Positions 39,566 through 54,657 of a stretch of DNA of 64,000 nt are shown here, one piece after another; the stretch's first letter is position 1; each line of letters opens with the position of its first letter. A program made the translations under genes and the position numbers. The stretch is from Desulfomonilia bacterium (GTDB lineage: Bacteria > Desulfobacterota > Desulfomonilia > UBA1062): assembly GCA_050014195.1 (NCBI GenBank), contig JBEKDT010000015.1:32001-96000 (forward strand), in the 5' to 3' direction. The notes under the pieces were generated by a model. It did no database searches and was not told the DNA's origin. It worked only from the letters and a program-made list of their open reading frames with translations.

Positions 39566-39833
39566 GATCTAATCCTTTCCCGGTAGTATGCTTGATTATA
39601 GCTTTATCTAAATTTCACCAGATATGTATTAATAACTTCGGATCAGGGAAAAACCAGTCAGACCAAGAAAAAATGAGACGGATTTATCGTATCATCGCTG
39701 TCCTCAAGCACGCCGGTGGGAATTTCACAGCAGCTCATCATGGAGGAGGTCTTGTCAAAGGGCCGGAAGGGTTCCATGCCTGCGCCCGGGTAATCGCGCC
39801 TGGTTGTGTGGTTTACCTTGAATCAGCTGGTTT

Positions 39834-40004
39834 TTAGTTATTGCCGCACCGCGCCTGCATGGCAGCGATGTCTTCAGGGGCAAGCCCTTTGCAATCGGAA
39901 TTAATCCTGTAATACATGATGGAACCCGGGTTTTTGCTGTGCTCGAGACCCTGGGCATGGCCGAACTCATGGGCCAGCGTACGCACAAGCATGTTGTGGC
40001 CGCT
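39834..40004 (-). pseudogene. C-terminal catalytic half of an interrupted matrixin (M10-like) metalloprotease
   Basis: Minus frame missing from the ORF track reads SGHNMLVRTLAHEFGHAQGLEHSKNPGSIMYY...CGNN*: HExxHxxGxxH plus Met-turn. Confidence 0.88.
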
Positions 40005-40030
40005 TAAATGTTAAATCTTCTTATATACTC
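40003..40030. other. Left att junction of the integrated element (core CT 40003-40004)
   Basis: Host GGCCG-CT then element arm TAAATGTTAAATCTTCTTATAT, an inverted match to the right-end arm. Confidence 0.85.
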
Positions 40031-40198
40031 CCTTTTATAGTCACTGGCAAAATCTCTGCATCCCATAGATCATCAATATCGTAATAGTATCATAAACTTG
40101 GAACCCACTTTGACAAATTGATGTAAAATATATTTTAAGCTTTGGTGTAATGAAATTTATTTTATAATGAAGATAAAAAATATTTTGGAGGAACATCA

Positions 40199-40432
40199 AT
40201 GAATACCAAAGCCATACATCTATCTCACATAAATGTGAATTCCTGGCAGCGTTTCAAATCGTGCGCAGCTATAAAAAATATGGCTATTAACGATCTAGCG
40301 AACGTGATGATTGAGGAATTCGTGGATGATTTCGAGGAAAAACTCTTTCGAGAAGCCTATCACAAGAAGCTTGCCGACCCCACTACCGATCTCAGTAAAC
40401 CTATAACAGTCAAACTCACGAGGACGAAGTAA
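40199..40432 (+). CDS. Putative ribbon-helix-helix DNA-binding protein
   Basis: GGAGG RBS; beta-helix-helix pattern IHLSHI...WQRFKSCAAIKNMAINDLANVMIEEFV. Confidence 0.55.
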   Translation: MNTKAIHLSHINVNSWQRFKSCAAIKNMAINDLANVMIEEFVDDFEEKLFREAYHKKLADPTTDLSKPITVKLTRTK

Positions 40433-40433
40433 T

Positions 40434-40652
40434 ATGAAAAACATCAGCGAGTGTGAGAGTTTCGAGGAATGGGCAATGTCGTTCAGTGATGATGAATTCA
40501 AGGAATTCGTCGCTGACAAATTTGGTGAACTTTCGATGGATCTGCGGAATAGAGATTTTAACATTGATCTCGTCTTACCAATCGTCGAATCAATAAAACA
40601 GGCTGTTTTTATACGTTATCAGTCGAAAGATCCGACAATCACAAATCATTAA
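40434..40652 (+). CDS. Hypothetical acidic protein
   Basis: Starts 1 nt after the previous stop; 72 aa. Confidence 0.5.
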   Translation: MKNISECESFEEWAMSFSDDEFKEFVADKFGELSMDLRNRDFNIDLVLPIVESIKQAVFIRYQSKDPTITNH

Positions 40653-40876
40653 AAACACAATGAACATCCCAGGCCTGTATAAACCCCTATGTTTGTCAAA
40701 TAAACATCACCTGGGACATCTCAGGAAGGAAAGCACTCATTGTAGAAAGGAACCGCATTCTTGCGGATTCTATAGAACAGGTGGGATAGGGTCGCTCCCG
40801 ACAAGAACGGTAAACTCCTTGGACCGTTCTTCCCACTTTTTATCATTCCATGGAGAACATGCACCGAGGAGGCATA

Positions 40877-41458
40877 ATGGAACGGGTTTCACGACGAATC
40901 TATCATAATGACCCTAAATTCAAGCCCAAGACTATCAAAGGTAAGACCAGATGGCAGCATGACAATAGCAAATGGCCCCTCAATTTCGGGTGGATGGAGA
41001 AGGACAAAAGTATCTGGCGCAGACTCAATAATCCCAAGGATCGGAGTTTCCATCACATGATTACAATCCTACAACACTTATGGGAGAAAAGGCTGGATCT
41101 GTTCGAGAGTAAATTTATTGCTGAACGTATAAACGCTGGTTTGTACAATACGCATAAATACGATGATGAGGGAAAGGAACGGAGATGGCCCTTTGTGATG
41201 TGTGCTCCACTTGATTATGATTATTTAGAAGCCCGAGACCTGGATCAAAGAAAGATCAGCTATTGTCTCAATGCACTCGTGAAGTGTGGCTTCTTACGAA
41301 GTTTCCGTCGGATAGGTCGCAATGGTCCAGTGAACTATGCAATCGGCTATTACATAGTGACATCACACGCTCCTTATGGCCGTGCATATCCTTTTTTGAA
41401 GAGTAACCCAGCGTGTCAAAAAGCACTGATTAATTTCAAATTCAGGGAGAAGATGTAG
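40877..41458 (+). CDS. Basic hypothetical protein, candidate replication/wHTH protein
   Basis: GAGGAGG RBS; ISYCLNALVKCGFL...NYAIG resembles a winged-helix end; followed by repeats. Confidence 0.5.
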   Translation: MERVSRRIYHNDPKFKPKTIKGKTRWQHDNSKWPLNFGWMEKDKSIWRRLNNPKDRSFHHMITILQHLWEKRLDLFESKFIAERINAGLYNTHKYDDEGKERRWPFVMCAPLDYDYLEARDLDQRKISYCLNALVKCGFLRSFRRIGRNGPVNYAIGYYIVTSHAPYGRAYPFLKSNPACQKALINFKFREKM

Positions 41459-41469
41459 TGATTTTGAAA

Positions 41470-41530
41470 TGTAAAAAGATCTACCCATGGTTTGTAAAAA
41501 GATCTAGCCATGGGGCATGGATAGATCTTT
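41470..41530. repeat. Iteron-like repeats (candidate ori or pac site)
   Basis: TGTAAAAAGATCTASCCATGG twice (41470, 41493) plus inverted CATGGATAGATCTTT (41516-41530), followed by AT-rich DNA. Confidence 0.7.
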
Positions 41531-42251
41531 ATCATATTTGATGGTTGGTTGATTAATGTTGAATAACAATATGTTACACGATAAATTGAAAAAATCAATT
41601 GTGGCACATATTATACCTATTTTTAGGTATCCCTTATATAGTACCAATAGGTTCTTCTTCACTTCGTTCAGAAGAACATTGAGCAAACTTCGTTTGCTCT
41701 ATCTCCCTCTTCTCTTTTTCAATGGAAGGAATGGAAAGACTATCCCATTCAGATTGAAAGAGTTTGTTTTTCCCCATTAGGGGAATTTTAGTCGGGAGCC
41801 TAAGTTTTGGAGGCTCCATATGAAATTGAAGGTTTCAAAGGTTGCCAGAGTGTTTCTCAGTATCCATTTGGCAAGTGACCTATTCGGGTCCAGTGCCAGG
41901 GGATTTCCCATCTACCAAGAAGCACATGATTCATTGAAGATCAATCCAAGTACCCTCGCCACTGTAAGATGGGTGGATGATCGGGAGCTACTTACATCAC
42001 TCAAATATTGGAGGCGTGATGGGTATGTGTATGGGTTGTTGCTGAACCGATTGGTTACGGGAGACCTCCCATGTGCTGGGTATGAAGGCAGTCGGGAGCC
42101 ATATGGTGATTTTTGAGGATTAATCCGGGCTTACCAAGTCTAAAGTCTTAAGTTATACTTTAGACTTTGGCACAAGAAGGCATAAAAAACGAGGAATAAA
42201 CTAATCATTTGAAATGTAATAAATAAATACAACGGGTTATGAGGTAATTGA

Positions 42252-44063
42252 ATGACACTTACACGAACCAGATTCCCAATCAAAGAGGATAAAGCACCAG
42301 ACATCGACCCTACCATTGACCCTGAAACTGACATCGATCAGGAACATAAAACCAACATACCCACTACCAAACAGAGAGGGTTCCCTAAAGGATCTCCAAG
42401 GCCTCCGAGGATAGCCGAGCGCTGGCAGGAGAACACGGAAGAAGCCTTCTATGCCTGGTTGGAAGATGTCAAGCCCATGATCCTTACACGATCAGGTAGG
42501 TATGAGGTCTTCCGACCCACACCTGAGCAGAAGACAATCATCAAGGCCGTCTTCACACAAGAAAATGGAAAGCTTAAGCACTCCATGATCCTGTCCATTC
42601 AGCCTCGTAGACACGGCAAGAGTACAGTCTTTGCAATCATAGCACTCTTCTTTTTCTGTTCCAGGAAGAACTACACCATTTCTTTGCTAGGTAATAACGA
42701 TACGCACACCGATAGGACAATGCTCAGGAAGCTCAAGTCCATCATCCAGCATACCGGAGGCTTAAGAATTCGGATAGACCCCGACAGGGACATCCTTCAT
42801 GACTGTATACGCCAGGAAACCTGGGGAAACCAAATAATCAAGCAAGGCGTTTCAAGTGCATCCGCATTCGGAGAGCGTATAAATCTGCTATGGGTATCGG
42901 ACCTCCATGCAGCCCCTGACATCTCGATATTCAACGCAGTCCAGGCCTCACTCTTAGACTCGGAAGATTCCCTGATCCTCATAGACAGCAATGCAGATTC
43001 CATAGGCGGTCCCGTTCATGGCTTGGAAGAAGAAGCCATGTCCGACCCTTCAATATTTTGCAGACACCTGGAATACAAGGATTTTGAAGAGTTTACAGAG
43101 AAAGCCCCTGCATGGATTGACCGATCCAGAGCCAAGCGCATACAAAGAACAGCCTTGGAAGCAGACTACCAGCGCGACATCCTCGGCAAACGCTCATCAG
43201 TAGCCAATGCTCTCTTCCCCGAAATCCTTATCAGGGCAGCTATGGACAGCTATAAAATCCCCGTTCTTGACATCAAAGACCTCGCCCATGGCAGACCCTA
43301 CAAGGTCGGTGCTGGTTTAGACCGAGCAAAGCTGTTGTCTCCGATAATGGGAGGAGATCACAGCGTCCTGACGACCGTTGCCAAGGTCGCCCAGACATCA
43401 GGTGAGCCCGAATATTTCATCCTCGACATGCACGATTTTACCTTGAACCTCAGCAAGGCAATAAAGGCCAGGATCATAGAGAATCACAAGAGATACACCC
43501 TCACCAATGTTGTCTTAGAATCATTCGAGACAGTAGACCTTCTCCCATATCTGGCAGAAATGCAAATTTCCCATGAGTCAATCCATGCAACAGACGTCGC
43601 ACAGAACACGATATTCCCTGAGTTCTACCGCATAGTGAAGGACGGTAGGCTCCATATCCCGGCAAACTGCACCCAGCTTGCCGATGAAATGCGCTCATTC
43701 ATTTATACCGCAAAGAAACATGGACAATACAGCTTTGGGCATTCATCAAGCCAGTTCCATGACGATGCCGTGTACGCCACTGCATGGGCGATCTTCTCTC
43801 TCAGGAATGAGATTCTTAGCATGTATCAGCTTGATCTACTCGATTGTCAGAATCAATCCTCGCTCAAACGGGCTCTATGTTTCTTATTTGGTGGTTCAAA
43901 AGTCATGCACTGCTCTGAAGGCTGTGCTGCATTCCATTCAGTCCAGGACATGCACCAAGACTTCCTGGCATTCAATCAGTTGGACAGCGAGCTTAACTTG
44001 GTTGAGTTTTTCAAGGCATACGTCCAGACCAAAGACACCATCAAACAATATCAGGTGCTGTAA
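42252..44063 (+). CDS. Phage terminase large subunit-like protein
   Basis: PTPEQ Q-motif, QPRRHGKST Walker A, GAGLD...DHS nuclease aspartates, HDDAVYA; located upstream of portal. Confidence 0.8.
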   Translation: MTLTRTRFPIKEDKAPDIDPTIDPETDIDQEHKTNIPTTKQRGFPKGSPRPPRIAERWQENTEEAFYAWLEDVKPMILTRSGRYEVFRPTPEQKTIIKAVFTQENGKLKHSMILSIQPRRHGKSTVFAIIALFFFCSRKNYTISLLGNNDTHTDRTMLRKLKSIIQHTGGLRIRIDPDRDILHDCIRQETWGNQIIKQGVSSASAFGERINLLWVSDLHAAPDISIFNAVQASLLDSEDSLILIDSNADSIGGPVHGLEEEAMSDPSIFCRHLEYKDFEEFTEKAPAWIDRSRAKRIQRTALEADYQRDILGKRSSVANALFPEILIRAAMDSYKIPVLDIKDLAHGRPYKVGAGLDRAKLLSPIMGGDHSVLTTVAKVAQTSGEPEYFILDMHDFTLNLSKAIKARIIENHKRYTLTNVVLESFETVDLLPYLAEMQISHESIHATDVAQNTIFPEFYRIVKDGRLHIPANCTQLADEMRSFIYTAKKHGQYSFGHSSSQFHDDAVYATAWAIFSLRNEILSMYQLDLLDCQNQSSLKRALCFLFGGSKVMHCSEGCAAFHSVQDMHQDFLAFNQLDSELNLVEFFKAYVQTKDTIKQYQVL

Positions 44064-44269
44064 TGTACGAGAAGACAGAAGATTTATGGCTCCCATTAAT
44101 AGGAGATGGTCAGATAGAATTTAGATGTGCAGCCTGCCGGAGATATTTTGGGAGAGGTTTATTCCCACCAGGATCTTTCCTGCTTCATAAATGTGGGAAG
44201 TGTGACCGGATAAACAGGCTTGGAGCCCATGGCGCTTCATTGGCATCACTCGGGGTAATAAAAAAATAA
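44063..44269 (+). CDS. Mu Com-like zinc-finger protein
   Basis: EFRCAAC...HKCGKCDRIN, matching Com RCxxC...KCxxCxxxN spacing. Confidence 0.6.
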   Translation: MYEKTEDLWLPLIGDGQIEFRCAACRRYFGRGLFPPGSFLLHKCGKCDRINRLGAHGASLASLGVIKK

Positions 44270-44284
44270 GGAAGGTAACAAGTA

Positions 44285-44485
44285 ATGGCAACAGGAACAG
44301 TAAAATGGTTCAACAGAGAAAAAGGGTATGGGTTTATCACAGTAGACGGTGGAAGTGATGTCTTTGTGCATTGGAAAAACATCTTAGGAGATGGGTTCAA
44401 GATGCTGGTTGAAGGCGATTCCGTAAGATTCGACATCGAGGAAGGCCCGAAGGGAGATCAGGCAGTTAACGTGAGGGAAGAATAA
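44285..44485 (+). CDS. Cold-shock protein (CspA family)
   Basis: [15 protein letters not shown] (RNP1), DVFVH (RNP2). Confidence 0.95.
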
Positions 44486-45003
44486 TGATCAAGCAAAATG
44501 GCAAATGGACGAGGATTCCACCCGAGCTTGAGCGGGCTTTTTACGCCCACCATGAGGCCGGTCATGTGGTGATGCATTACCTCAAAAAAGTGAGATTTGC
44601 TTATGTGACTATCAATGGAACCATGTCTGAACGTCCAGATGTTAAATCTTTCGTCTGCGTTAATCCAATATCCTTTGAGAAAAGGAAAAAGGTACTGGAA
44701 AGGGAATTTCTTCTTGATATGGCCGGGACAATTGCCGAAAAAATTTATCTCAAGTCCAAAGGCTATGAGGTGTGTCCCGGGTATACAAAAAGTGACTTGC
44801 GGTTAATCATGAACAAGGCTGAAAAGTATTTTGGGATTACAGAACCAGATGTAATTGACAAAAAACTAAAAGAACTTGAGCCCGAGTGCAAAAATCTCAT
44901 TGAACAGAACTGTAAAGCTATTACAGCCATTGTGGAAGCCCTACTGAAAGAAGAGACGATAGGATACAAAAAGGCCAGAGAGATCATCAAAAGAATAAAA
45001 TAA
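44485..45003 (+). CDS. Stand-alone peptidase M41 (FtsH C-terminal)-like protein
   Basis: AHHEAGHVV, MAGTIAE, SDL, AIVEALLKEETI. Confidence 0.7.
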   Translation: MIKQNGKWTRIPPELERAFYAHHEAGHVVMHYLKKVRFAYVTINGTMSERPDVKSFVCVNPISFEKRKKVLEREFLLDMAGTIAEKIYLKSKGYEVCPGYTKSDLRLIMNKAEKYFGITEPDVIDKKLKELEPECKNLIEQNCKAITAIVEALLKEETIGYKKAREIIKRIK

Positions 45004-45135
45004 GTTTTCGTCTTGTTATAGAAAAAAACTATAATAACATATATCACGAAAAGCCCCCTTTTCATGCATAGAGCCCCATGGAGGCCAGCCGACGGCCAAA
45101 CCATTGGGGCTCTTTTGCTTTTAGGAGGTTAGTGA

Positions 45136-46482
45136 ATGTTTTGGAACAGCGTTGTTGACGATGTAGCATTTCGAACATGGGGATTCAGTGCGACTGACCC
45201 CGTCTTGATGCGGAAGCAGGAACACCTCCGCAGGATTGAGTATTACCACGACTTACAGTTAGATTTCCTGCGGATGCAGCTTACCCGACATTTCGCAGAT
45301 GCAAGCAAGATCACGCCGATGTTTATCAATGTGACCCGAAAAGTCATAAACAACATTGCCAGGGTTTACATTTATCCGGTCACGAGGCAGATCGTCAAAG
45401 GCTCAACAACCGACACCGAACTTTTCCAAGCAATTGCCCTCACATCGTCTCTTGGAAGAAAACTCAAGCTGGCAAGTCGATATTGCAAGCTCCTTAAAAC
45501 CCTTCTGCTCAGGCCAATATGGCGTGATGGTCACATGGACTTGGACCTGATAACGGGTGACAAAACCGATGTCACTTATGGTGATGTTCCGGAGCAGTTA
45601 CTATCGGTCAAAATAACGATCTATCCTGACTCAGGAAAGCTCGAAGACCTAACATATAGCCTTTGGACTGCCCAAGAGTTCCAGACGCTTGACTACAGAA
45701 ATAAAGTGATTGCAAGCCAGCCAAATCCTTACGGCGTTTTGCCATTCGTCCCGATCTGGGATGGTGTTCCAGTTCGAGATTTTTGGATCGATGGCGGTGA
45801 CGATCTGATCACAGCCCAGGATGCCGTTAACGAGAGGTTGACCGATTTATGCTATGTTTTACGCCTTCAAGGATACGGTCAGCCTTATACAATCGGTGTA
45901 CCACAAAGCACCGACTTTTATTTGGGACCAGGTGCAGTAACCCAACTGCCACAGGGATGTAGCATGGGCTTTGCCTCAACTAACGCCCCAATCAGCGCGA
46001 TCATCGAAGCAATAAAATTTCTCATAGGTCAGACAGCTGTCTCGTATGGCCTGTCCGCGCATATTCTAATTGACGAACCGGAACGATCTTCCGGAATTAG
46101 CAAGATAATTTCTAGCCAGGAGCTAGATGAAGCCCGGCAGGACGAGGTCGAGCTTTTCATGGATTACGAGCATAACTTATTCAATATGTTCAAGGTTCTA
46201 TGGAACCATCACAATCCTGGTAAACAGTTTTCCAAGAATGCAGAATTAAAAGTATCATTTGAAGATCCTAAACCAGAAGTTGATCCTCTGGTCCAAGCGA
46301 ACGCATGGACTGCATTGATGGGCATGGGCGTCATATCGCCTGTGGACATCGTCATGGCTCGCAATCCTGACATAACGAGTAGACAAGATGCCCTCGCATA
46401 TTTGCTGACTGTAGAATCCGAGATGAGAACCCTCAATGAGGGATATCCCATAACCCCAAATCCAGGAAGGACGGTACCCTAA
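45136..46482 (+). CDS. Phage portal protein (SPP1 gp6-like)
   Basis: AGGAGG RBS; EYYHD, INVTRKVIN, NPYGVLPFVP, DLITAQDAVNERLTD, SSG; 448 aa. Confidence 0.78.
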   Translation: MFWNSVVDDVAFRTWGFSATDPVLMRKQEHLRRIEYYHDLQLDFLRMQLTRHFADASKITPMFINVTRKVINNIARVYIYPVTRQIVKGSTTDTELFQAIALTSSLGRKLKLASRYCKLLKTLLLRPIWRDGHMDLDLITGDKTDVTYGDVPEQLLSVKITIYPDSGKLEDLTYSLWTAQEFQTLDYRNKVIASQPNPYGVLPFVPIWDGVPVRDFWIDGGDDLITAQDAVNERLTDLCYVLRLQGYGQPYTIGVPQSTDFYLGPGAVTQLPQGCSMGFASTNAPISAIIEAIKFLIGQTAVSYGLSAHILIDEPERSSGISKIISSQELDEARQDEVELFMDYEHNLFNMFKVLWNHHNPGKQFSKNAELKVSFEDPKPEVDPLVQANAWTALMGMGVISPVDIVMARNPDITSRQDALAYLLTVESEMRTLNEGYPITPNPGRTVP

Positions 46483-46877
46483 TGGAAAAAGAAGCAATCG
46501 TCAACGCAGACGGAAAAAGCGATGAAACAAAGGAAAAAGCCCAGGCCCAGGGCACGGACAATGCCACCGAAAAAGGCAGCAAGATGATTCCCAAGGAACG
46601 ATTCGATCAGGTCAACCAGCAGAAAAAAGAGGCTCTTGAAGCCCTGCAATCCATTGTTGATGAACTCATCGAGGACATCCCGGAAGAGTTTAAAGACCTC
46701 GTCCCTGACCTATCACCAGCAGTTAAAATAATGTGGATCAGGAACGCGCAGAAAAAGGGAATCTTTGGGAAGACATCTCCTGATGGGCTAGACACAAAGA
46801 GATCCGGGAATACGGCCCCCAGAAATCTTGAAGGTCTTAGTACACACGATTTAAGGAAACTTGGTTACAAAAACTAA
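46482..46877 (+). CDS. Capsid scaffolding protein-like
   Basis: MIPKERFDQVN motif plus coiled coil, between portal and capsid genes. Confidence 0.7.
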   Translation: MEKEAIVNADGKSDETKEKAQAQGTDNATEKGSKMIPKERFDQVNQQKKEALEALQSIVDELIEDIPEEFKDLVPDLSPAVKIMWIRNAQKKGIFGKTSPDGLDTKRSGNTAPRNLEGLSTHDLRKLGYKN

Positions 46878-46956
46878 AAAATAAATCCATTGTCTCAACA
46901 TAGTTAGAGGCCATTGAAGAGCCCTTGTTTCTGACGTGGAAACAGGAGGAAAATCA

Positions 46957-47877
46957 ATGGCTTTAACATTGTTAGATCAAGCTAAACTTTGCGTTGATCC
47001 GCTTCAAAAAGGCATTATCGAAGAGTACCCGCGAACTTCTGAGGTGCTTCAACGACTACCCTTTATGTCAGTTTCAAGTGATACTTACAGATACAACAGG
47101 GAAGAAATTTTGCCAGGTGTCGGTTTTCGAGGCGTGAACGAGAGCTATAATGAAAGCACTGGCATACTCAATCCCCAGATCGAGACACTCATGATCTCAG
47201 GTGGGTTTAGCGATGTTGACCGTGCTCTAATTAAAACACAGGGAAATGTAAACGATCTTCGGGCAATTTATGACGGACTAAAGGCCAAGGCATTAAGCCT
47301 GTTCTGGACTAAAGAATTCTTTAAGGGTGACACTACAGTCAACCCACGAGGATTCGATGGTCTTGAAAAACGTCTGACTGGTCCGCAGCTCCTCGATATG
47401 GGCTCAAGTGCAGGTGGTGACACCTTGACCCTTGCCATGCTCGACGAGCTGATCGACTGCTGCCCATGGGGTGTTGATTGTTTGTTTATGAACAGGACCA
47501 TGAGGAGAAAGGTCAATGCCTTGATTCGTGCTTCCGGTGCAGCAATCGAGACGGTCTCTGATGCCTTCGGTCAACAGATACCTTCATATGCATCCATACC
47601 AATCGGGATAATTTGGATCGATGAAAAAGGTAATGAAATCCTTGATTTCAATGAACCTGCGCCTGGTGATGGTGCTACTGTTACCACCTCAATTTATGCA
47701 GTTAAATTTGGTGCAGGGCAGTACGTTTCAGGATTGCAGGTCAGTCCTATAGAAGTGCTCGATCTCGGCTTGTACGCTGGCGGTATCAAGTTCAGAACGC
47801 TGATCGAGTGGATCAGTGGCATGGCTGTCTTTAACTCAAGGGCAGCAGCGCGTCTACGTGGAATTAAAAACGCATAA
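46957..47877 (+). CDS. Major capsid protein
   Basis: GGAGG RBS; LPF...YRYNRE..LPGVGFRGVNESY, FDGLEKRL, LDELID, AAARLRGI; 306 aa after scaffold. Confidence 0.82.
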   Translation: MALTLLDQAKLCVDPLQKGIIEEYPRTSEVLQRLPFMSVSSDTYRYNREEILPGVGFRGVNESYNESTGILNPQIETLMISGGFSDVDRALIKTQGNVNDLRAIYDGLKAKALSLFWTKEFFKGDTTVNPRGFDGLEKRLTGPQLLDMGSSAGGDTLTLAMLDELIDCCPWGVDCLFMNRTMRRKVNALIRASGAAIETVSDAFGQQIPSYASIPIGIIWIDEKGNEILDFNEPAPGDGATVTTSIYAVKFGAGQYVSGLQVSPIEVLDLGLYAGGIKFRTLIEWISGMAVFNSRAAARLRGIKNA

Positions 47878-47999
47878 TAGTGTCTCACTCCCAGGAGTGA
47901 GTGTTTTACCCGACCGGTCTGCCACTCAGACCTGTGTCATATTCTTAAATGGGGAGCAAGGATCGGCCTTGCTCCCCAGCCTCCAAGAAAGGATGAAGC

Positions 48000-48191
48000 A
48001 TGGAACGTAAAAGAGGTAGGCCCAAGAAAAGTATAAAACTGATGGAAAATAGGGTTGGGTTCTTCATTGAGATTTACAAGGATCTTCATCAGCAACTTAA
48101 GACTGAGTCCGACAGGCAAGGTGTGCCCATGTGCAAGTTTGTAGAAATAGCAATCAAAGAATTACTTAAGTCATGTACAATGACATCTTAA
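48000..48191 (+). CDS. Small RHH-like protein with RGRP AT-hook-like motif
   Basis: RKRGRPKK...FIEIYKDLHQQLKTESDRQGVPMCKFVEIAIKELL. Confidence 0.6.
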   Translation: MERKRGRPKKSIKLMENRVGFFIEIYKDLHQQLKTESDRQGVPMCKFVEIAIKELLKSCTMTS

Positions 48192-49180
48192 AATTCCAGC
48201 ATCGTGTAGATCAACGAAGCAATGCTCTTGCCTCGGATATGATCCGAGAGCTTGATGCTGCAAGGGTTGAAATCCTTGGAAAACTGGCTGATCTGCAAGA
48301 TCGTTACATTCGAGGCGACTACAACACCGAGACATTTCAACGTAAACAGGCTTTCTTACTGCATCAGAGGAACGAGGTTGAAGATACCCTTGATAGTGTT
48401 TTCAGCAATATTGGAGATCAACTCCAATCAGCCTCAGAAGACGTTATCGCAGCGACAACCGTACACACGATCAGTACAATGAACAATAGCACTGGCCTTG
48501 ACATCCAGTTCTTCCACTTGGACCCTGAACTTGTCCAGGCATGGTTCCAGACCGGCCTTATCGAAGGCTCGACCCTCACAGACTGGCTCAATAAGCTAAA
48601 ACAGTCCACAGCCGACAGAATAATTAAGGCACAAAGACAATCCCTCATTCAGGGCGAGAGTGTGGGGGGAATGGTCAAACGATTACGCCAGGAGGGCGTT
48701 GAGGGAAGTTATCGAGACCTCACTGGCCTTGCCCGAACCAGTATGCTTTCGGCTGCAAACTATGCTCGTGAACAAACCGTTACTCAGGGCTTCGGGGATG
48801 TGCTCACGGGCTGGCAATATTGCGCCACGCTAGATTCGAGGACGTGTTTGGTGTGTGGGGATTTGGATGGAACCACATATGGCCCTACAGATCAAAAAGA
48901 AGATTTACCCTTACATTGGTGCTGCCGATGTTGCTACATTCCACTAGTAGGTGGTGAGGGTGCTAACACTGATGATCGTCCAGCCGTTACAGATGAAAGA
49001 GTTGAGAGGTTTGACGGCACATACAACGAGTGGATGCAATCGCAATTAGAATCCGACCCCGGCTTCGTCAAGGATGTTTTAGGCCCTGGAAGGTTTGATT
49101 TATTCAAAGATGGGAAAATAAGCCTTTCAAATATGGTTACAAATGGCGAAATAACAACCCTTGCAGACCTCAAAGGATAG
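48173..49180 (+). CDS. Phage head morphogenesis / minor capsid protein (SPP1 gp7, Mu F-like)
   Basis: LARTS, ATLDSRTCLVCGDLDG, PLHWCCRC, VLGPGRFDLFKDG. Confidence 0.85.
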   Translation: MYNDILKFQHRVDQRSNALASDMIRELDAARVEILGKLADLQDRYIRGDYNTETFQRKQAFLLHQRNEVEDTLDSVFSNIGDQLQSASEDVIAATTVHTISTMNNSTGLDIQFFHLDPELVQAWFQTGLIEGSTLTDWLNKLKQSTADRIIKAQRQSLIQGESVGGMVKRLRQEGVEGSYRDLTGLARTSMLSAANYAREQTVTQGFGDVLTGWQYCATLDSRTCLVCGDLDGTTYGPTDQKEDLPLHWCCRCCYIPLVGGEGANTDDRPAVTDERVERFDGTYNEWMQSQLESDPGFVKDVLGPGRFDLFKDGKISLSNMVTNGEITTLADLKG

Positions 49181-49206
49181 GGGTTTTCAGAGGTCGGGGC
49201 TAACCT

Positions 49207-49434
49207 TTATCCTTCTATAGCCACTAAAACCGCTCCATTAACATATGAAGCATAGCGATGATTTAAGTAAGTTACAATTTCATTATCCCATTTTAACTCA
49301 TCCCCTTGATTATCTCTTGGCTTCCTATCTTTTATAGTCACCTCCATTGAACTATATACTCCAAACTGAACGCTAAAACCTTTGGCCTTCCCGTCTCTCA
49401 TCGTTCCACTAATCATTATAAACTTATATTCCAT
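49207..49434 (-). CDS. Hypothetical protein
   Basis: ORF overlapping the upstream minus-strand gene; GGAG RBS before MEYKF. Confidence 0.5.
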   Translation of the reverse strand: MEYKFIMISGTMRDGKAKGFSVQFGVYSSMEVTIKDRKPRDNQGDELKWDNEIVTYLNHRYASYVNGAVLVAIEG

Positions 49435-49714
49435 TGCTTGACTCTCCTTTTTCTGGCTCCCCATATAGGGATACCCAGACTGCTCTTTTCATTTCTTTGG
49501 TTATGTATTTACCAACTATCGTTCTACAATCTTCAGCAAGTGCAATAAGCTCCTTTTTTGCTTTCTTTATGCGTTTGTCGGTCCAATTAGGGGTAACATC
49601 TAGAAGGTCACACCATTCAATATGACTGAGCATGTCATCCAAAACACATAACTGGGTTAACAATTCGCCAATGTCTATACTGCCTGCAACCTTACCATTT
49701 TTTAACTTACCCAT
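49424..49714 (-). CDS. Hypothetical protein
   Basis: GAGGTG RBS; 96 aa. Confidence 0.55.
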   Translation of the reverse strand: MGKLKNGKVAGSIDIGELLTQLCVLDDMLSHIEWCDLLDVTPNWTDKRIKKAKKELIALAEDCRTIVGKYITKEMKRAVWVSLYGEPEKGESSNGI

Positions 49715-49947
49715 TTTTCACCTCTCTCGTTCATCATGCTTACATTATATCATATTTTCAGATGAAACACGGTTTTCGGATAGGGTTTCAACAGGTCAGG
49801 GCAAAACCTTATCTCCTATATCTTTCTTTAATAATACAATCAATTTATATCTTTCACGAAATGTGAAAGATAGTCTTGTTTTTTAAATAAATAAAAATTA
49901 TTATGAATATATCTTGTTATATCAAAAGCCTATGAAAGGAGAGAATT

Positions 49948-50301
49948 ATGGTTGCAAAAAAGGGACAAGTTAAGAAGTCAGGCAATGGCGATACCATTGA
50001 AAAGATCAATCGCAAACCAGTCCAGAAAAAGGCGGCTATCAAGGACGATCAAACAGCAGCCCCCAAAGAAATCAAAACAGATGTTTTCGGTAACAGAGTC
50101 AATACCCAGTCCAGCCTGATCAATGAACTCCTCCTGAAAGGCACGAAGAAGGACGTCATTGTCAAGGCTATCATGGACAAGTTCAACAGTCCTGAGAAGA
50201 CGGCTACCGGCAAACTTCGGGGGCACATCAAACACCTCAAGAAAGAAGGACATTCTGTAACCGAGAAGGATGACACCTATACCATAAAGATAAAAGGCTA
50301 G
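49948..50301 (+). CDS. Lys-rich small protein, possible wHTH nucleic-acid binder
   Basis: AAGGAG RBS; basic composition; GKLRGHIKHLKKEGHSV...YTI. Confidence 0.6.
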   Translation: MVAKKGQVKKSGNGDTIEKINRKPVQKKAAIKDDQTAAPKEIKTDVFGNRVNTQSSLINELLLKGTKKDVIVKAIMDKFNSPEKTATGKLRGHIKHLKKEGHSVTEKDDTYTIKIKG

Positions 50302-50309
50302 GGGGCGAT

Positions 50310-50504
50310 ATGGATCTGATTGAACGTCAGGCAAAAGCGGATCAAGTCAAAAACAGGGTGTTCAGTATTCTTACTGTGGCCTTAGCTCAGGTCAGGAATA
50401 CAGTTGAGGAGTCCGGTCTTGAGATGAGAGACTGTGGCATCAGTGTTGAGCGATACCAGGCCGGAGATCATTCAATATTCGTCGATCTCAGGATGAAGAT
50501 ATAA
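50310..50504 (+). CDS. Hypothetical protein
   Basis: Follows the previous gene; terminator downstream. Confidence 0.55.
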   Translation: MDLIERQAKADQVKNRVFSILTVALAQVRNTVEESGLEMRDCGISVERYQAGDHSIFVDLRMKI

Positions 50505-50537
50505 AAATATAACCCGCACCTACGAAAGACCTCCCTT

Positions 50538-50566
50538 GGCCCCGGTGCAATGCCGGGGCCTTTTTT
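50538..50566 (+). terminator. Rho-independent terminator
   Basis: GGCCCCGG-TGCAATG-CCGGGGCC followed by TTTTTT. Confidence 0.85.
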
Positions 50567-50618
50567 ATGCCCCTCGATGAATTTGGGGAGTCCTTTTAAG
50601 GCCCCGCCGCAACTGTGT

Positions 50619-50849
50619 CTAATCCTTCAATGGAATCCAGGCCCAACGGTGAAAGCCTTCTCTAAGCTTATATTTATAACAATCACCATTCGAATAAGTT
50701 GATGTCAGGATTCCTTGATCAGCATTGTAATCCCAGGTAAAAATATCACCGTATGTTCCTCGGACCTGACACTTAAAACTTTTCTTTAAATCTATACTCA
50801 AAAAATCCAACTCGTCCTCGTCCCAAATTTCCTTATCTCCCAGATCCAT
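50619..50849 (-). CDS. Hypothetical protein
   Basis: AGGAG RBS before MDLGDKE. Confidence 0.5.
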   Translation of the reverse strand: MDLGDKEIWDEDELDFLSIDLKKSFKCQVRGTYGDIFTWDYNADQGILTSTYSNGDCYKYKLREGFHRWAWIPLKD

Positions 50850-51026
50850 TGTGATTCTCCTATAAATTTTTATTCGACGAATAAACAATCGTACAGACTA
50901 TCGTAGCACACTTTTTTCAAAACCTTGTTCAGTCTGGAAAAATAGTTTTTATGAGTAATTATCTTGTTTTATTTATATATTTATTTTATGATATTCTTAA
51001 AATAAATAAGGCAGGAGGGCCAAGTT

Positions 51027-51269
51027 ATGGCGGAAAAATTGAGGGCTTTTACCCTTTACATCGAAGATATAAAGCTCCGTAAGATGAAGGCGATAGCAGC
51101 CTACAAGGATAAAAAGACAAGGGAAATTGTCAACGAGATGTTCGATCTCTACCTGGCAAAGTTCGCTGAAACTGAGCAAGGCAAGCAGCTTATGGCATCC
51201 TTTGAAGAAGAACACAAAGGGGAAATCAAACTTACTCGCCTGAAGAAACCGGAATCACAAAAACCATGA
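51027..51269 (+). CDS. Putative ribbon-helix-helix regulator upstream of the recombinases
   Basis: GGAGG RBS; FTLYIED...KMKAIAA...TREIVNEMFDLYL. Confidence 0.6.
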   Translation: MAEKLRAFTLYIEDIKLRKMKAIAAYKDKKTREIVNEMFDLYLAKFAETEQGKQLMASFEEEHKGEIKLTRLKKPESQKP

Positions 51270-51286
51270 TATAATAAGGGGGAAAT

Positions 51287-51994
51287 ATGGCTGATGTGTA
51301 CATGGTCACTAGAACATCGACAAATCACCAGGACCTTTCCATTGAGGCCCAGGATGCAGCCCTGAGAAAATGGGCTATGAATCATGGGCACATTGTGAAG
51401 GGTATTTCCACAGAGGACGGGGTGAGTGGTGGACGGGACATTAAGAAGCGTCATATTATGAAGATCCTCAACAAGATGGGCAAAGGTGACATCCTGGCTA
51501 CGTATTCATGGAGTAGGCTGACGAGAAGCCTTTCAGACCTGATGGAAATTGCCAAGATCCTGGAAAAGAAGGGGTCACATTTGGTGAGTCTCGTAGAGCA
51601 GATTGATACGAGCACCCCACAGGGCAGACTCTTCTATCACATCATGGGGTCTATGCATCAGTTTGAAAGAGAGCTGATTGCTCAGCGAGTTAGGTTTGGA
51701 CTGGACCACAAACGGTCAAAATCTGAGAAGTTGGGTGGCATGATTCCATTCGGCTATGATGTGAAGGTGGTTCCCGGTATGAATCGCAAGGGTGAGCCGA
51801 CCAAGATCAAGAAGCTGGTCCCAAACGAGAAAGAGCATTTTATCATAGAGAAGATACTTACATTGCGACGGGAGTCATGCACTTTGAAGAATATTGCCAA
51901 TACACTGAATGCCGAGGGCATCCCGACCAAGAATGGCAGTGTATGGCTTTCGGGCCAGATAAATAGGATAGTTCGACGGGAGGCAAGGGCATGA
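51287..51994 (+). CDS. Serine recombinase (resolvase domain plus short DNA-binding recombinase domain)
   Basis: RTSTNHQ..SIEAQ catalytic motif, SRLTRS, IDTSTPQGRL, FERELI, PFGY, IANTLNAEGIPT. Confidence 0.92.
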   Translation: MADVYMVTRTSTNHQDLSIEAQDAALRKWAMNHGHIVKGISTEDGVSGGRDIKKRHIMKILNKMGKGDILATYSWSRLTRSLSDLMEIAKILEKKGSHLVSLVEQIDTSTPQGRLFYHIMGSMHQFERELIAQRVRFGLDHKRSKSEKLGGMIPFGYDVKVVPGMNRKGEPTKIKKLVPNEKEHFIIEKILTLRRESCTLKNIANTLNAEGIPTKNGSVWLSGQINRIVRREARA

Positions 51995-53610
51995 CTACGG
52001 ATGGATTGAAACCACCTCTACGTTTTGGGGTGCTGTGCCGTGTTAGCACCGAACCTCAGGAAAAGCGTGGGGAATCCCTGAACAATCAAAAGAAGCAGGT
52101 CGAGTCTGCCGTGAAATATCTTGGTGGGATAATTACCATGCGATATGAGGGGCAAGAGCATAGTACACCAGGATCTGAACGAGAGATGCTTGACAGGGCT
52201 CTCGTAGATTCTGGCAAAGGTCTCTTCGATGCATTTATGGTCCCTGATCTCACAAGATGGACCAGGGACAATGAAAAGAATAAGCAGAGTATCAGAATTT
52301 TTAGGATGAACAAGATACGCTTTTTTGTAGGAACGATGGAGTTCAATTTAAACAAGTCTCATGATCGAATGATGATTGGAATGACGACAGAGGTCGGAGA
52401 AGGCACCGCTGGCTATATGGCAGAGAGGAGCAAGGAATGTCGTCATGATCTATTTAGTAAAGGAGTGCCATGTGTCGGTCAGAAACCCTATGGACGAAAG
52501 TATGACAAGAAGACAGGCACATGGAGTATCGACGAAGAAAAGAAGGAAATGATTAAGATAGCAGTCAAGAAGTTTCTATCAAAGATAGGCCGTGAGAAAA
52601 TAGGCCGTGAGAAAATTGCAGAGGAAATGGGAATTTCTCCAAGCACATTGTATATCATCTTCAAAAAATTCCTTGGTGATACATGGACCACTAAAATGGG
52701 GACAATGAAAATCCCTCCCCTGATTGAGGATCAGAAAATCATTAAAGCAGTCCATGAGAGACTTGAAAACAACAAGACCATCAACCATGATCCACGTGGG
52801 AAACATGCATATCTGTTATCCAGCATCATATTTTGCGCTGATTGCGGACTCACCCTGAATGGCGTTCCCGATCAGATGAACTATGGAAAGACTGAGGCCC
52901 AATATAAATATAGGTACAGACACCCAAAGAACAAAAGCATCAAGCGTTTTTGCCCAAATTATAAAGCATGGGACATCAGGGCAGAGGACATAGAAGAAGC
53001 TGTGATAATCCAAATGCTATATCTTTTTGGACATAGAGAAGCATTAGAGAAGTCCATATTAAGAACTGTCCCCAATAATGAAAAATTGCAAGAACTGTCT
53101 GCCACCAAGGCAAGGTATAATAAGGAGTTCGATAATATTGAAAAAGAAATACAGACCCTCATTGAAAAAACCGTCAAAGGAATATTTACGGATGAAGAAG
53201 CAAGACCCACTATGGAAAAATATCGTGAACGCAAGAGATTCCTCAAACTAGAGATGGATAATCTCGATACTCAGATTGGACAATCACCAACCAAAAAAGA
53301 GCTTAGTGCACTTGCCAAAAGAGTTCACCAACAGGCTTGGAAGGCACTTTATCAAAATCCTGCAAAAATGACATGGACTCAGAAACGGGAACTTTTGTTA
53401 AAGGTATTTTTAGGGAAGCATGTCTCTGGCGATAAACCAGGTATCTATGTCAAAAAAGTTGATGATGTCGTGCATTATTCTATCAAAGGACTAATCAATC
53501 AGGAGATTGAGGGGTGTCTTCCAATGAGCGATTGGGAGAGGGAAGAATTGCTAGATAATCCTATAAAAGCAAAAGGGAATAATATAACAAGTAAATTTAA
53601 CAATTACTGA
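51991..53610 (+). CDS. Large serine recombinase (integrase)
   Basis: CRVSTEPQ..SL..Q, DLTRWTR, KPYG, PPLI, YLLSSIIFCADCG Zn ribbon, coiled coil; the stop codon straddles the att junction. Confidence 0.92.
   Translation: MTTDGLKPPLRFGVLCRVSTEPQEKRGESLNNQKKQVESAVKYLGGIITMRYEGQEHSTPGSEREMLDRALVDSGKGLFDAFMVPDLTRWTRDNEKNKQSIRIFRMNKIRFFVGTMEFNLNKSHDRMMIGMTTEVGEGTAGYMAERSKECRHDLFSKGVPCVGQKPYGRKYDKKTGTWSIDEEKKEMIKIAVKKFLSKIGREKIGREKIAEEMGISPSTLYIIFKKFLGDTWTTKMGTMKIPPLIEDQKIIKAVHERLENNKTINHDPRGKHAYLLSSIIFCADCGLTLNGVPDQMNYGKTEAQYKYRYRHPKNKSIKRFCPNYKAWDIRAEDIEEAVIIQMLYLFGHREALEKSILRTVPNNEKLQELSATKARYNKEFDNIEKEIQTLIEKTVKGIFTDEEARPTMEKYRERKRFLKLEMDNLDTQIGQSPTKKELSALAKRVHQQAWKALYQNPAKMTWTQKRELLLKVFLGKHVSGDKPGIYVKKVDDVVHYSIKGLINQEIEGCLPMSDWEREELLDNPIKAKGNNITSKFNNY
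53582..53610. other. Right att junction (core CT 53607-53608)
   Basis: Element arm ATATAACAAGTAAATTTAACAATTA-CT then host GAATTG. Confidence 0.85.
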
Positions 53611-54364
53611 ATTGAAAAATGGTTATGCTTTCCCTGAACATGGTCCTCTCATACAGACCGGAAGCGAACTTCCCGGTCAGTTCGTTGCATGTGTTTTTGT
53701 AGCTCATCACCTGCGAATTGTGGTTTGATGCTATGGAACCGATGTCTGCAACAATACCGTTCAGGTCGTCCACCGTCTTCTGCAGGTCCGCTTGTTGGGC
53801 CTGGAGGCCTTCCAACTCGGCATCGAGGGACTGCTTCTGCCCGGAAAGACTTTGAAAGGTTCCCCTGGAGACGGTGTCATCCTTATTCGCTGCATCAAGC
53901 TCAGCCCTGTAGGCATTCAGGTGCCTCATGTATGCATCATATTGCGCTGAATAGGCGGCATTCTTCCGCTCCACCTCGGCTTTAAGATCATTGTACAGGG
54001 ACATGAGCTCATCATACGATGCCTTTGCATCGTCTATGCCTCTGCTGATGTTTTTCAGATTGTCCGTTACTGCCTGCCGGTTGTCATACACCAGGTCTAT
54101 CTCGATGGAGCCGGCCGGGTCTTCCTGGAAGATCTTGTGCCCGATGGCCTTCTCCCACATGGCGACCGCCTCATGAACGGCATCCGTAACCTCCTGCCTG
54201 CTCAATCCGAAGCGCTCATCGATGGAGTTGATGCGGTAGGTCATGATCGTGTTGAATGCCTCTGATCTGCCCTGGAAGATGCAGACAAAGAGGATACAGA
54301 TGATGATTTGTGGCAGATACCTGATGGGGCTTAAGGGGTGGCTCGTGTATGCATTTTTCATCAT
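53609..54364 (-). pseudogene. N-terminal part of the interrupted secreted matrixin-like metalloprotease
   Basis: Signal peptide, YRINSIDERFGLS, AMWEKAIG, LVYDNRQ, coiled coil, GLY...ITIFQF; joins 39834-40004 in frame. Confidence 0.85.
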
Positions 54365-54415
54365 GGTGGTACAGATATTTTTCGGGTGATATTCTAAAAA
54401 GCTTAACAGGCTACT

Positions 54416-54657
54416 TGTTCTCACCACGAAGGACTTAGCGCAGCATAGCCGCAACCAAAATGAGCTTGGGATTTGAGCAGACATAGAAGTCCTTCACCAC
54501 GAAGAGCACTTTAGGACACGAAGAAAGGAAACCTTTTGAAATAGTGGAACGGTTCAAAGAACCCACGATTGTCTGTTATGCATTTCTTAGATCATCTTCG
54601 TGCTCTTCGTGTCCTTCGTGGTGAAATTTCCCTGTGTGTGCTCTTCAACGATCCGGG
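54416..54657. repeat. Dispersed MITE/REP-like repeat, copy 3
   Basis: Same flanks as copy 2, but the interior is reverse-complemented between CACCACGAAG and CTTCGTGGTG. Confidence 0.85.

Follow-up and report, generated by a model that had tools for sequence, protein, structure and literature searches.

Introduction

How can a mobile genetic element that encodes the head of a phage and none of its tail be transferred to a new cell? This question is raised by a stretch of 64,000 nucleotides from a Desulfomonilia bacterium of peat metagenomes (GenBank assembly GCA_050014195.1, contig JBEKDT010000015.1, positions 32,001 to 96,000 of the forward strand), in the following called the window, in which a discrete low-GC insertion of 13,604 bp occupies positions 40005–53608. 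The insertion carries open reading frames (ORFs) for a large terminase (TerL), a probable portal, a scaffold-like protein, a major capsid protein (MCP) and a MuF-type minor head protein, together with two serine recombinases. Judged by its gene content it is complete, head-only, satellite-sized and distinct from the described phage-inducible chromosomal islands that form capsids (cf-PICIs), and by MCP relationship and gene order it is a member of a family of 12–17-kb head-only elements with an epsilon15-type MCP. We consider it probable that the element is an integrative capsid-forming phage satellite, analogous to the cf-PICIs and of separate origin, which receives neck and tail from a helper phage; this satellite function we infer from the sequence.

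Capsid-forming satellites are already known. cf-PICIs were defined by int, alpA, pri-rep, terS, terL, hnh and the genes for portal, protease, capsid, adaptor and connector; they are devoid of tail and holin genes, have a median size of 14 kb with EcCIEDL933 as the prototype, and form three clades in Gammaproteobacteria and Firmicutes that are characterized by protease-type heads and connectors of their own (PMC10085698; bioRxiv 10.1101/2022.09.08.507074). For the Streptomyces satellites MulchRoom and MiniFlayer, the published report lists terminase, portal, capsid, scaffold and adaptor and no recognizable primase, and MulchRoom forms small heads with tails of helper length (PMC10690885). No description of a head-only family with an epsilon15-type MCP was found in the literature, the supplementary tables of the surveys being a place where such elements may be listed. 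What is new here is most likely the lineage, the head type, the hosts and a sub-lineage without adaptor.

Limits of the Element and Its Attachment Sites

The GC content amounts to 0.37–0.49 within approximately 39500–53600 and to 0.50–0.58 in the flanks, and no tRNA gene was found within the window. Empty sites are present in two congeners, G003 (L002) and G004 (L003), in which the flanks up to approximately 40008 and from approximately 53607 on adjoin each other at 90–96% nucleotide identity. Furthermore, contigs of four peat metagenome runs holding the element were aligned to positions 39000–54600 of the window, and one contig of run X7 was found to join 40002 to 53607, thereby skipping 13,604 bases with two letters fitting both sides; the assembly of this run also breaks at exactly 40004 and 53607. 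Because the congener empty sites and this joint with its CT overlap agree, the coordinates and the two att ends proposed in a preliminary description of the window, which was made from the letters alone, are exact. The features that define the insertion and its mobility are:

40003–40004: core dinucleotide CT at attL, from the alignment of attL, attR and empty site and from the two-letter overlap of the run X7 joint
53607–53608: core dinucleotide CT at attR, from the empty-site alignment and the run X7 joint
40005–53608, + strand: integrated element, from the GC drop, the two congener empty sites and the contig skipping exactly 13,604 bases
39834–40004, − strand: 3′ fragment of the interrupted host gene, encoding the C-terminal 56 amino acids (aa) with a HEFGHxxGLEH zinc-protease motif; in G003 and G004 it is joined to the 5′ part without a break
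53609–54484, − strand: 5′ part of the same host gene, with 292 of its codons; ORF 53597–54484, as listed, extends a few codons into the element
51027–51269, + strand: 80-aa ORF just upstream of the recombinases, ribbon-helix-helix (RHH)-like by inspection; the only match is phrog_6580 (unknown function, E 3e-4)
51287–51994, + strand: short serine recombinase, 235 aa, comprising the catalytic domain and the start of the "Recombinase" domain (Resolvase 8.5e-34, Recombinase 1.5e-5)
51991–53610, + strand: large serine recombinase (LSR, integrase), 539 aa, CcrB/XisF-like (Resolvase 1.9e-11, Zn_ribbon_recom 1.2e-6)

The host gene split by the element lies on the minus strand and encodes a coiled-coil protein with the HEFGHxxGLEH metalloprotease motif. 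Removal of the element restores a single frame of 348 aa, and a search with the 295-aa host ORF product in 41 related genomes gave matches in 13, the paralogues and orthologues having open frames of approximately 320–345 aa. The insertion was made at the CT core by site-specific recombination of the large-serine-recombinase kind. The LSR carries the motif CRVSTEPQ, as read from the sequence, and in the reconstructed attP the arms show mirror symmetry around the non-palindromic CT at 13 of 16 positions (counted by eye on the sequences); catalytic serine motif, zinc-ribbon domain, inverted attP arms and a 2-bp non-palindromic core, the predicted hallmarks of the LSR type, are all present. The stop codon of the LSR, a TGA at 53608–53610, straddles the attR core, one of its bases belonging to the core and two to the host, and is created by integration. 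After excision the frame would continue through 40005–40085, making the ORF 26 codons longer (565 aa vs. 539 aa). Both recombinases have counterparts in L183, the sibling locus described below, with an identity of 37% over 520 aa for the LSR and of 38% for the short recombinase, the latter belonging to family cluster c12, which contains nine further rows of comparable length.

In nature, the occupied and the empty site exist side by side. In run X7 the empty-site contig has a depth of 9.8 and the element contig of 31; the empty-site joint was seen in one of the four runs, X4, X16 and X12 holding the occupied form only. A circular (attP) joint is not listed in any of the four runs, which were searched as contigs, and this lack is uninformative on excision since contigs drop rare forms. 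At 100% identity the element was found in many peat and wetland runs from 2017 to 2025; among the 24 runs listed, no RNA data set contains it.

Head and Packaging Genes

The genes were identified by scanning the ORFs of the window with Pfam, PHROGs and NCBIfam, by which the TerL, portal, scaffold, capsid and MuF-like genes and the two serine recombinases named in the preliminary description were recovered, the portal by a weak match in the window. The head and packaging genes and the two small ORFs flanking TerL are:

41820–42116, + strand: 98-aa ORF directly upstream of TerL, resembling a small terminase (TerS) by position alone
42252–44063, + strand: TerL, 603 aa (phrog_2 1.5e-13, phrog_9 6e-9, weak Terminase_6N/6C matches)
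44063–44269, + strand: 68-aa zinc-ribbon ORF travelling with TerL; homologues follow TerL immediately in L183 (41%), L147 (35%) and the G003 remnant described below (43%)
45136–46482, + strand: probable portal, 448 aa (phrog_104, E 0.004)
46482–46877, + strand: scaffold-like protein, 131 aa, between portal and capsid gene; family cluster c3, in 58 other loci
46936–47877, + strand: MCP of the epsilon15 gp7 type (NF045672 222 bits, PF20911, phrog_212 2e-76)
48173–49180, + strand: MuF/SPP1-gp7-type minor head protein, 335 aa (PF04233 5e-11, TIGR01641, phrog_241 5e-45)

The head had been called SPP1-like, which holds for the MuF protein with its likeness to SPP1 gp7 and has to be revised for the MCP, which is of the epsilon15 gp7 type, and for the portal, which matches no SPP1 model; a comparison of the portal cluster with the SPP1-type portal cluster by hhalign gave a weak match (E 0.006, probability 5.9). 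Orthologues of the portal in L016 and L017 match the portal family phrog_533 at 3e-10 and 8e-8, and its position between TerL and scaffold is kept in 62 other loci. The scaffold-like protein has no Pfam family above cut-off. At family columns with a conservation of 95% or more, the window keeps 17 of 18 residues in TerL, 53 of 55 in the portal, 8 of 8 in the scaffold and 23 of 24 in MuF. All core ORFs are of full length in comparison with L183, in agreement with the earlier statement that no pseudogenes are evident. TerL is preceded by a homologue of the 98-aa ORF also in L183 (41% identity) and the G003 remnant (40%); its AlphaFold2 (AF2) model (pLDDT 77) gave no fold match, the best PDB row having an E of 1.2 and the best BFVD row an E of 0.05, with no named function.

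Tail, neck, connector, lysis, primase, AlpA and HNH genes were not found in the element with Pfam, PHROGs and NCBIfam, except that the 85-aa ORF at 49207–49464 has one tail match at chance level (phrog_22322, E 0.0064); the earlier list of missing functions (tail, connector, lysis, primase, AlpA) is thus borne out. Moreover, positions 39500–54000 were searched in six frames with hidden Markov models (HMMs) of those clusters, among the 70 largest of the family, that have at least three members, and the models matched the five head genes and the short recombinase and nothing else; the clusters of Ad1 (c5), c6, c9, Hc1, Neck1, ERCC4, tyrosine integrase and the primases c11, c24, c28 and c47 had no match in any frame.

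A Family of Small Head-Only Elements

Among 3132 candidates, 697 relatives of the MCP were found at E ≤ 0.001, the best of them apart from the query itself being 64–69% identical, and the few that carry source names belong mostly to Desulfobacterota. Scans with the capsid alignment yielded 146 relatives among 225 pattern matches in genome contigs, 199 among 370 in IMG/VR and at least 510 among 589 in metagenome contigs, 80 being kept in each case. The nearest relatives (MCP 57–69% identical) are mostly elements of 12–17 kb, chiefly from Desulfobacterota, with an integrase, a primase and the same head module; the adaptor Ad1 is present in many of them and tail genes in few, and most IMG/VR and metagenome contigs with an MCP identity of at least 53% have a length of up to 20 kb. 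By tblastn, TerL, portal, scaffold, MCP and MuF are collinear in the closest loci, and these five genes are homologous (27–68% identity) to and collinear with those of L011–L020, L094–L158 and L183–L189. The preliminary description had proposed to search for small elements of the same synteny, and such collinear relatives of 12–17 kb were found in genomes, IMG/VR and metagenomes; it had also named closest homologues that always lie in tailed prophages of more than 30 kb as an outcome against its reading, an objection that falls because the close relatives are small head-only elements.

The gene content of the family was derived from 1343 ORFs of 90 related loci, which were clustered and the cluster representatives annotated, and from a PHROG scan of 150 ORFs from eight related loci. 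The family layout comprises, in this order, tyrosine integrase, primase, ERCC4 or HNH nuclease, a small ORF, TerL, portal, scaffold, MCP, c6, Ad1, MuF and c9, with primases of the DnaG-Zn+AAA_25 or the PrimPol+D5_N kind and, in the wider family, an AlpA/excisionase-like gene. Many of the 90 loci are incomplete contigs, and occurrence counts are lower bounds: at least 35 loci have Ad1 (c5), at least 32 c6, at least 21 c9, and at least nine besides the window a short serine recombinase. The PHROG scan revealed tyrosine integrases in L011, L015 and L018, primases in L015 and L016, ERCC4 or HNH nucleases, Ad1 in L015, L016, L017, L019 and L026, and Hc1 in L019 and L026, matches of the tail category being confined to L017 (a tape-measure gene upstream of TerL) and L026 (phrog_290). 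L019 is a family member in a cultured host, Desulfosarcina widdelii PP31. None of 77 related IMG/VR loci has terminal direct repeats. In Alpha- and Gammaproteobacteria (L043, L047, L048, L056) a TerL–portal–scaffold–MCP–Ad1–MuF-like module occurs with a serine recombinase of 191–215 aa and no tail genes, so that the link between head module and small serine recombinase crosses phyla. Two head-only relatives, L110 and L114, stand in tandem on one IMG/VR contig of 27,380 nt, and each of them ends with a short serine recombinase followed by ParA-like and PrimPol genes.

Tailed relatives are more distant. Among 50,697 records of deposited phages the best MCP identity is 52%, and the 25 best-matching records listed have sizes of 50–357 kb; in tailed prophages the MCP identity to the window reaches at most 54%. 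Bacillota loci L022 and L027 and Actinobacteria loci L069 and L072 are full siphophage prophages, as checked with PHROGs. In the nearest tailed group (L159–L168), terminase and portal belong to other clusters, the portal being of the SPP1 type, and the tail bears a sheath.

An MCP phylogeny, which the preliminary description had suggested, was built from 113 MCPs, with 104 of 112 rows having less than 4 kb downstream and less than 64% identity left out and duplicates merged. Rows were labelled T for a tape measure, sheath or verified tail, H for at least 4 kb downstream without a sign of a tail, U where neither could be assigned, and Tq where the only sign was a downstream ORF of at least 600 aa on the + strand. 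The Tq rows were kept apart because this proxy mislabels loci such as L016 and L129, whose long ORFs (915 and 1015 aa) have no tail PHROG. IQ-TREE (quick mode) and FastTree agree on one half of the tree with 44 rows (25 T, 17 Tq and 2 H). The window lies inside a mostly tail-free clade of 46 rows with an SH-aLRT support of 99 (30 H, 8 U, 4 T and 3 Tq, two of the latter being L016 and L129), in which L094 is its partner (97) and L184 and L095 join next (98).

A Sub-Lineage With a Reduced Gene Set

The closest sibling is L183, a metagenome contig of 14,862 nt, of which L094 represents the right 6.6 kb. It shares ten syntenic homologues with the window at 29–68% identity, namely a winged-helix protein, the 98-aa ORF, TerL (57%), the zinc ribbon, portal (57%), scaffold (62%), MCP (68%), MuF (60%), which directly follows the MCP, the short serine recombinase and the LSR. 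Further genes of L183 are an RHH-like first ORF at the position of the 77-aa ORF of the window, a leftward DUF3102 gene after MuF and a UPF0047 gene between the recombinases. Adaptor, primase, c6 and tyrosine integrase are lacking in L183 as in the window, and these common gaps point to a maintained sub-lineage. L095 (12,451 nt) shares the left half and the adjacency of MCP and MuF. On tree and gene content, the window, L183/L094, L095 and L184 are a monophyletic sub-lineage that keeps a reduced gene set; since diverged members share this set, it is not peculiar to the window copy.

Immediately next to the LSR of L183 lies, on the opposite strand, the N-terminal part of a UPF0047 gene of the host. 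An intact UPF0047/YjbQ gene is found at 12772–13188 of L183 and a disrupted host gene of the same family at 14728–14862, and the intact gene may be a replacement copy for the disrupted one.

Comparison With Known Satellites and Phages

The element resembles the cf-PICIs in being an integrative island of approximately 14 kb with an integrase (serine, not tyrosine), its own TerL, portal and capsid, accessory cargo and no tail, holin or lysis genes, and the wider family has in addition a primase, an AlpA/excisionase-like gene and Ad1 in cf-PICI order. It differs in the head, which consists of scaffold, epsilon15-gp7-type MCP and MuF in place of protease and capsid, and in the hosts, as the family is found mainly in Desulfobacterota with some Alpha- and Gammaproteobacteria, outside the three described clades. 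AlpA and primase, the head protease (a scaffold-like gene stands in its place) and adaptor and connector are missing; no prohead protease is present in the element, a peptidase-like cargo gene of the M41 type not being conserved in relatives. Of the packaging set, TerL is present and HNH and TerS were not recognized. By our own count, the window has four of the 11 SatelliteFinder core components (an integrase of another family, TerL, portal and capsid), and the weakest cf-PICI type, Type C, has nine of 11 according to the survey (PMC10085698). The contrast drawn in the preliminary description, that cf-PICIs carry tyrosine integrase, primase and connector, applies to the window, L183/L094, L095 and L184, which lack tyrosine integrase, AlpA, primase and both connector genes, and not to most family members, which carry a tyrosine integrase, a primase and an Ad1 adaptor and are much like cf-PICIs in layout.

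MulchRoom and MiniFlayer are likened to the element by gene content, being capsid-encoding satellites without primase; they differ by direct terminal repeats, virulent helpers and a head-to-tail adaptor of their own, and MiniFlayer has no integrase. The PLEs (elements resembling phage-inducible chromosomal islands) of Vibrio cholerae integrate by a large serine recombinase, as the window element appears to do, and are different in that, in the available accounts, they have no capsid genes and use the whole helper virion. Homologous MCPs (40–54%) are also found in the tailed phages Bacillus PK2 and Paenibacillus larvae C7Cdelta, Tripp and Halcyone and in the prophages L022, L027, L069 and L072, in the latter with connectors following the MCP; all of these differ by a size of at least 50 kb and full tail modules. 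A complete tailed prophage would have a tail, neck and lysis module between 40005 and 53608, which is not the case, and the features expected of an RcGTA-like gene transfer agent (GTA) locus are likewise missing: att sites and recombinases are present, the congeners are empty at the site and there are no tail genes.

We put forward tentatively, as a view that is somewhat less likely to be right than wrong in all its parts, that the family represents a fourth independent origin of capsid-forming satellites, in Desulfobacterota and some Proteobacteria. The sub-lineage of the window would be reduced further than any described cf-PICI, retaining shell, portal, MuF and terminase, with the serine-recombinase pair and a winged-helix protein with iterons replacing tyrosine integrase and primase; having no neck protein, it would obtain adaptor, neck and tail from the helper, or else its filled heads would be released bare and completed elsewhere.

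Alternative Explanations

A number of observations weigh against a satellite that borrows a tail. Some members of the family carry tail genes: a tape-measure gene together with Neck1 is present in L104, L105, L106, L108 and L109, directly after MuF where mapped, and L017 and L127 have a tape-measure gene upstream of TerL. The earlier proposal of a distinct satellite family therefore stands for the small head-only close relatives and has to be qualified for these seven loci. Many of the "head-only" relatives are incomplete contigs whose assignment is based on 4 kb or more without tail genes behind the MCP. The portal of the window is weakly supported in itself (the phrog_104 match), and a search of PDB sequences with a profile of 12 portals yielded nothing at E ≤ 1. 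No TerS was recognized in the element by Pfam, PHROGs, NCBIfam or the fold of the 98-aa ORF. Every described cf-PICI has adaptor or connector genes (bioRxiv 10.1101/2022.09.08.507074; PMC10085698). In the window, hhalign comparisons of 13 small ORFs with 13 clusters for a head-tail adaptor or connector reached a probability of at most 2.1%, and neither two AF2 models (202-aa and 98-aa ORFs) nor two Atlas look-ups (117-aa and 85-aa ORFs) led to a connector fold; the ORFs at 40434, 49424, 50310 and 50619 were covered by HMM, hhalign and the family libraries, and a novel adaptor is possible. With regard to mobility, three IMG/VR and two metagenome contigs with 100% MCP identity are all of the integrated form, and the empty-site contig may stem from a strain that never carried the element and not from excision. 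The host genome, which is 100% complete by marker genes and consists of 29 contigs, contains no family adaptor or tail cluster and no Pfam Phage_capsid, Phage_portal or sheath match, and a tape-measure model reaches 21.8 bits, below cut-off; a second copy of the head genes is also lacking there. Since the host genome offers none of these matches, a helper, if there is one, is not resident.

Part of these observations would be explained if the element were a defective relic, a satellite or small phage that lost adaptor and primase and is still movable by its recombinases without forming transmissible particles. We regard this as unlikely, though it is the rival to be taken most seriously. Ad1 and c6, which occur so often in the 90 loci (35 and 32), are both missing from the window, and no helper was found in the host genome. 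The MCP keeps 75 of 83 conserved columns and deviates at eight, other rows having a median of one deviation and a maximum of 11; the changes include the radical exchanges G178W and E227W and an altered patch around residues 176–178, and they could reflect relaxed constraint. Decay has clearly taken place in the congener G003 (L179 9350–11782, G003:C21), where the TerL of a relative is spread over three frames, with homologues of the 98-aa and zinc-ribbon ORFs on either side, and portal, MCP and MuF are absent. Against a relic, the window has full-length core ORFs with nearly all conserved columns kept, and the same reduced set recurs in the same order in L183, and partly in L095 and L184, within a supported clade; ten genes kept despite divergence to 29–68% identity argue for selection on the reduced architecture. 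MCP and MuF are likewise neighbours, with no adaptor in between, in L018, L023, L144 and L170.

The missing adaptor could also mean that no tail is ever docked, the element being a self-sufficient tail-less virus-like element or a domesticated head producer of a GTA-like or compartment-like kind. MuF-type proteins are head-internal and DNA-associated in SPP1, which would suit such a particle, and the 100%-identical copies from peat and wetland runs over these years are always integrated. We hold this to be improbable: portal and terminase serve delivery through a tail in every tailed-phage head known, Ad1 is encoded by most members of the family and Hc1 and Neck1 by some, connectors that are sensible only with tails attached, no lysis or release function is encoded, and LSR, att sites and variable cargo mark a mobile element and not a domesticated locus. 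A split prophage with tail and lysis genes elsewhere in the genome is very improbable, for while the 29-contig assembly leaves linkage incompletely known and unusual gene orders do occur (L017 and L127), both att ends lie in the window and enclose the head genes without a tail, and the complete genome has none of the tail, adaptor, capsid, portal or sheath matches named above and a sub-threshold tape-measure match at most.

Replication Candidates, Regulators, and Cargo

The remaining genes of the element point to functions in replication, regulation and accessory cargo:

40199–40432, + strand: 77-aa ORF, first gene of the rightward left-arm operon, RHH-like by inspection; no family match
40434–40652, + strand: 72-aa acidic ORF; no match in Pfam, PHROGs, NCBIfam or PADLOC, hhalign to connector clusters at most 2.1% probability
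40850–41458, + strand: predicted 202-aa winged-helix DNA-binding protein, candidate replication initiator or, alternatively, packaging-site binder
41470–41530: 15-nt repeat present three times (twice direct, once inverted), with an AT-rich stretch behind it; candidate origin with iterons, or candidate pac site
44285–44485, + strand: cold-shock-domain protein (csp), 66 aa, cargo (Pfam CSD 1.3e-26, PADLOC CSD_V 4e-18)
44485–45003, + strand: 172-aa protein with a HEAGH motif, similar to the peptidase domain of FtsH (M41), cargo (Pfam Peptidase_M41 7e-8, 32.9 bits, above cut-off)
49207–49714, − strand: two leftward small ORFs of 85 and 96 aa, from their orientation possibly the repressor side of a divergent switch
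49948–50504, + strand: two rightward ORFs, one of 117 aa with a winged-helix-like C-terminal part and one of 64 aa; phrog_13162 transcriptional regulator, E 0.002
50619–50888, − strand: 89-aa ORF; no match in any library

The 202-aa protein is rare, with 21 homologues among 1.84 billion representatives. Its AF2 model (pLDDT 83) contains winged-helix units, and the best Foldseek rows are the RepA_N initiators 5kbj, 4pql and 4pt7 of staphylococcal plasmids (E 0.03, probability 0.91); in VIA, only generic winged helix-turn-helix (wHTH) matches with Z ≤ 6 were obtained. These weak fold matches suggest a replication initiator as a working hypothesis. Homologues stand at the same position in L183 (29%, covering its C-terminal part) and L095 (34%), and directly 3′ of the winged-helix gene a repeat cluster with an AT-rich stretch is found in all three elements (L183 1801–1880, L095 689–763), the letters of the repeats being different. 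A winged-helix gene with its own repeat cluster in each of three elements fits a protein with a cognate site, either an origin or a packaging site. In Staphylococcus aureus pathogenicity islands (SaPIs), the origin lies immediately 3′ of rep and is an AT-rich stretch with short repeats on its flanks. The arrangement in the window, L183 and L095, a gene for a DNA-binding protein followed by repeats and an AT-rich stretch, is the same, and the window protein differs in being a 202-aa winged-helix protein without a helicase domain.

The divergent ORFs at approximately 49.7 kb, together with a strong terminator at 50538–50560, 3′ of the ORFs at 49948–50504, suggest a regulatory switch. For the 117-aa ORF the Atlas leads to wHTH clusters, all below its bars, and for the 85-aa ORF it gave no usable match. 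A sub-threshold RH3_dom match was obtained for the first ORF of L183, which has the position of the 77-aa ORF, and a sub-threshold RHH_1 match for a 107-aa ORF of L095 at a different position, downstream of MuF.

The gap between TerL with its zinc ribbon and the portal holds csp and the M41-like gene in the window, an RVT_1 reverse transcriptase and a helix-turn-helix (HTH) gene in L183 (4535–6203) and other genes in L095 and L019, which suggests a cargo hotspot. The csp gene is 73–91% identical at the nucleotide level to chromosomal csp genes of the host family and is absent from the relatives; the M41-like protein has no homologue in any related locus. With PADLOC, csp was the sole match in the element and no complete known defence system was found.

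Proposed Life Cycle

Taken as an integrative capsid-forming satellite, the element may propagate as follows. A signal, probably of helper-phage infection, would flip the divergent switch at approximately 49.7 kb, whereupon the LSR would excise the element, perhaps aided by the short recombinase or the RHH protein. The 202-aa winged-helix protein would bind the repeats at 41470–41530 and recruit host replication. Scaffold, MCP, portal and MuF would assemble into heads, for which a small size is proposed because the elements measure 12–17 kb, and TerL with the 98-aa and zinc-ribbon proteins as putative partners would package the element's own DNA. Filled heads would then be furnished with the neck and tail of a helper; the most plausible candidate is a tailed member of the family, whose Ad1, Hc1 and Neck1 would fit the homologous portal. 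In the new host, the LSR would integrate the element into the metalloprotease gene.

Genomic Neighbourhood

By the annotation of its flanks, the element sits among defence-type genes: to its left, a SoFic protein (PADLOC 1e-124) and an Mrr/ZorD-like restriction nuclease are encoded at 37230–38396 and 38702–39565, and to its right an NTP_transf_8 nucleotidyltransferase at 55086–55784 on the minus strand. A short repeat at 54415–54600, to the right of the interrupted gene, recurs at 13357–13486 and 19699–19891 with copies that are 80–85% alike, and in metagenome contigs the repeat at 54415–54600 shows a high summed depth and many loose ends. A second low-GC island of the same genome (G000:C19:35450–41750, L180 4451–10750) carries a tyrosine integrase (c8, 2e-130), a primase/helicase (c11, 2e-69), a weak TerS-like ORF and no head genes; these genes may mark a PICI-like satellite that has its left-hand module in common with the family.

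Perspective

The family member of the cultured Desulfosarcina widdelii PP31 offers a route to experiments, and the cargo between TerL and portal, which differs between siblings, suggests a hotspot for defence and other genes that is worth mining. If the satellite interpretation is true, the capsid-forming satellite strategy would extend to anaerobic bacteria of soil and sediment and to a different type of head, and the half of the element that serves integration and replication would be freely exchangeable, with a tyrosine integrase and a primase in most relatives and a serine-recombinase pair and a winged-helix protein in the window element. The lineage without adaptor, finally, raises the question which parts of the head-tail interface a satellite must own.

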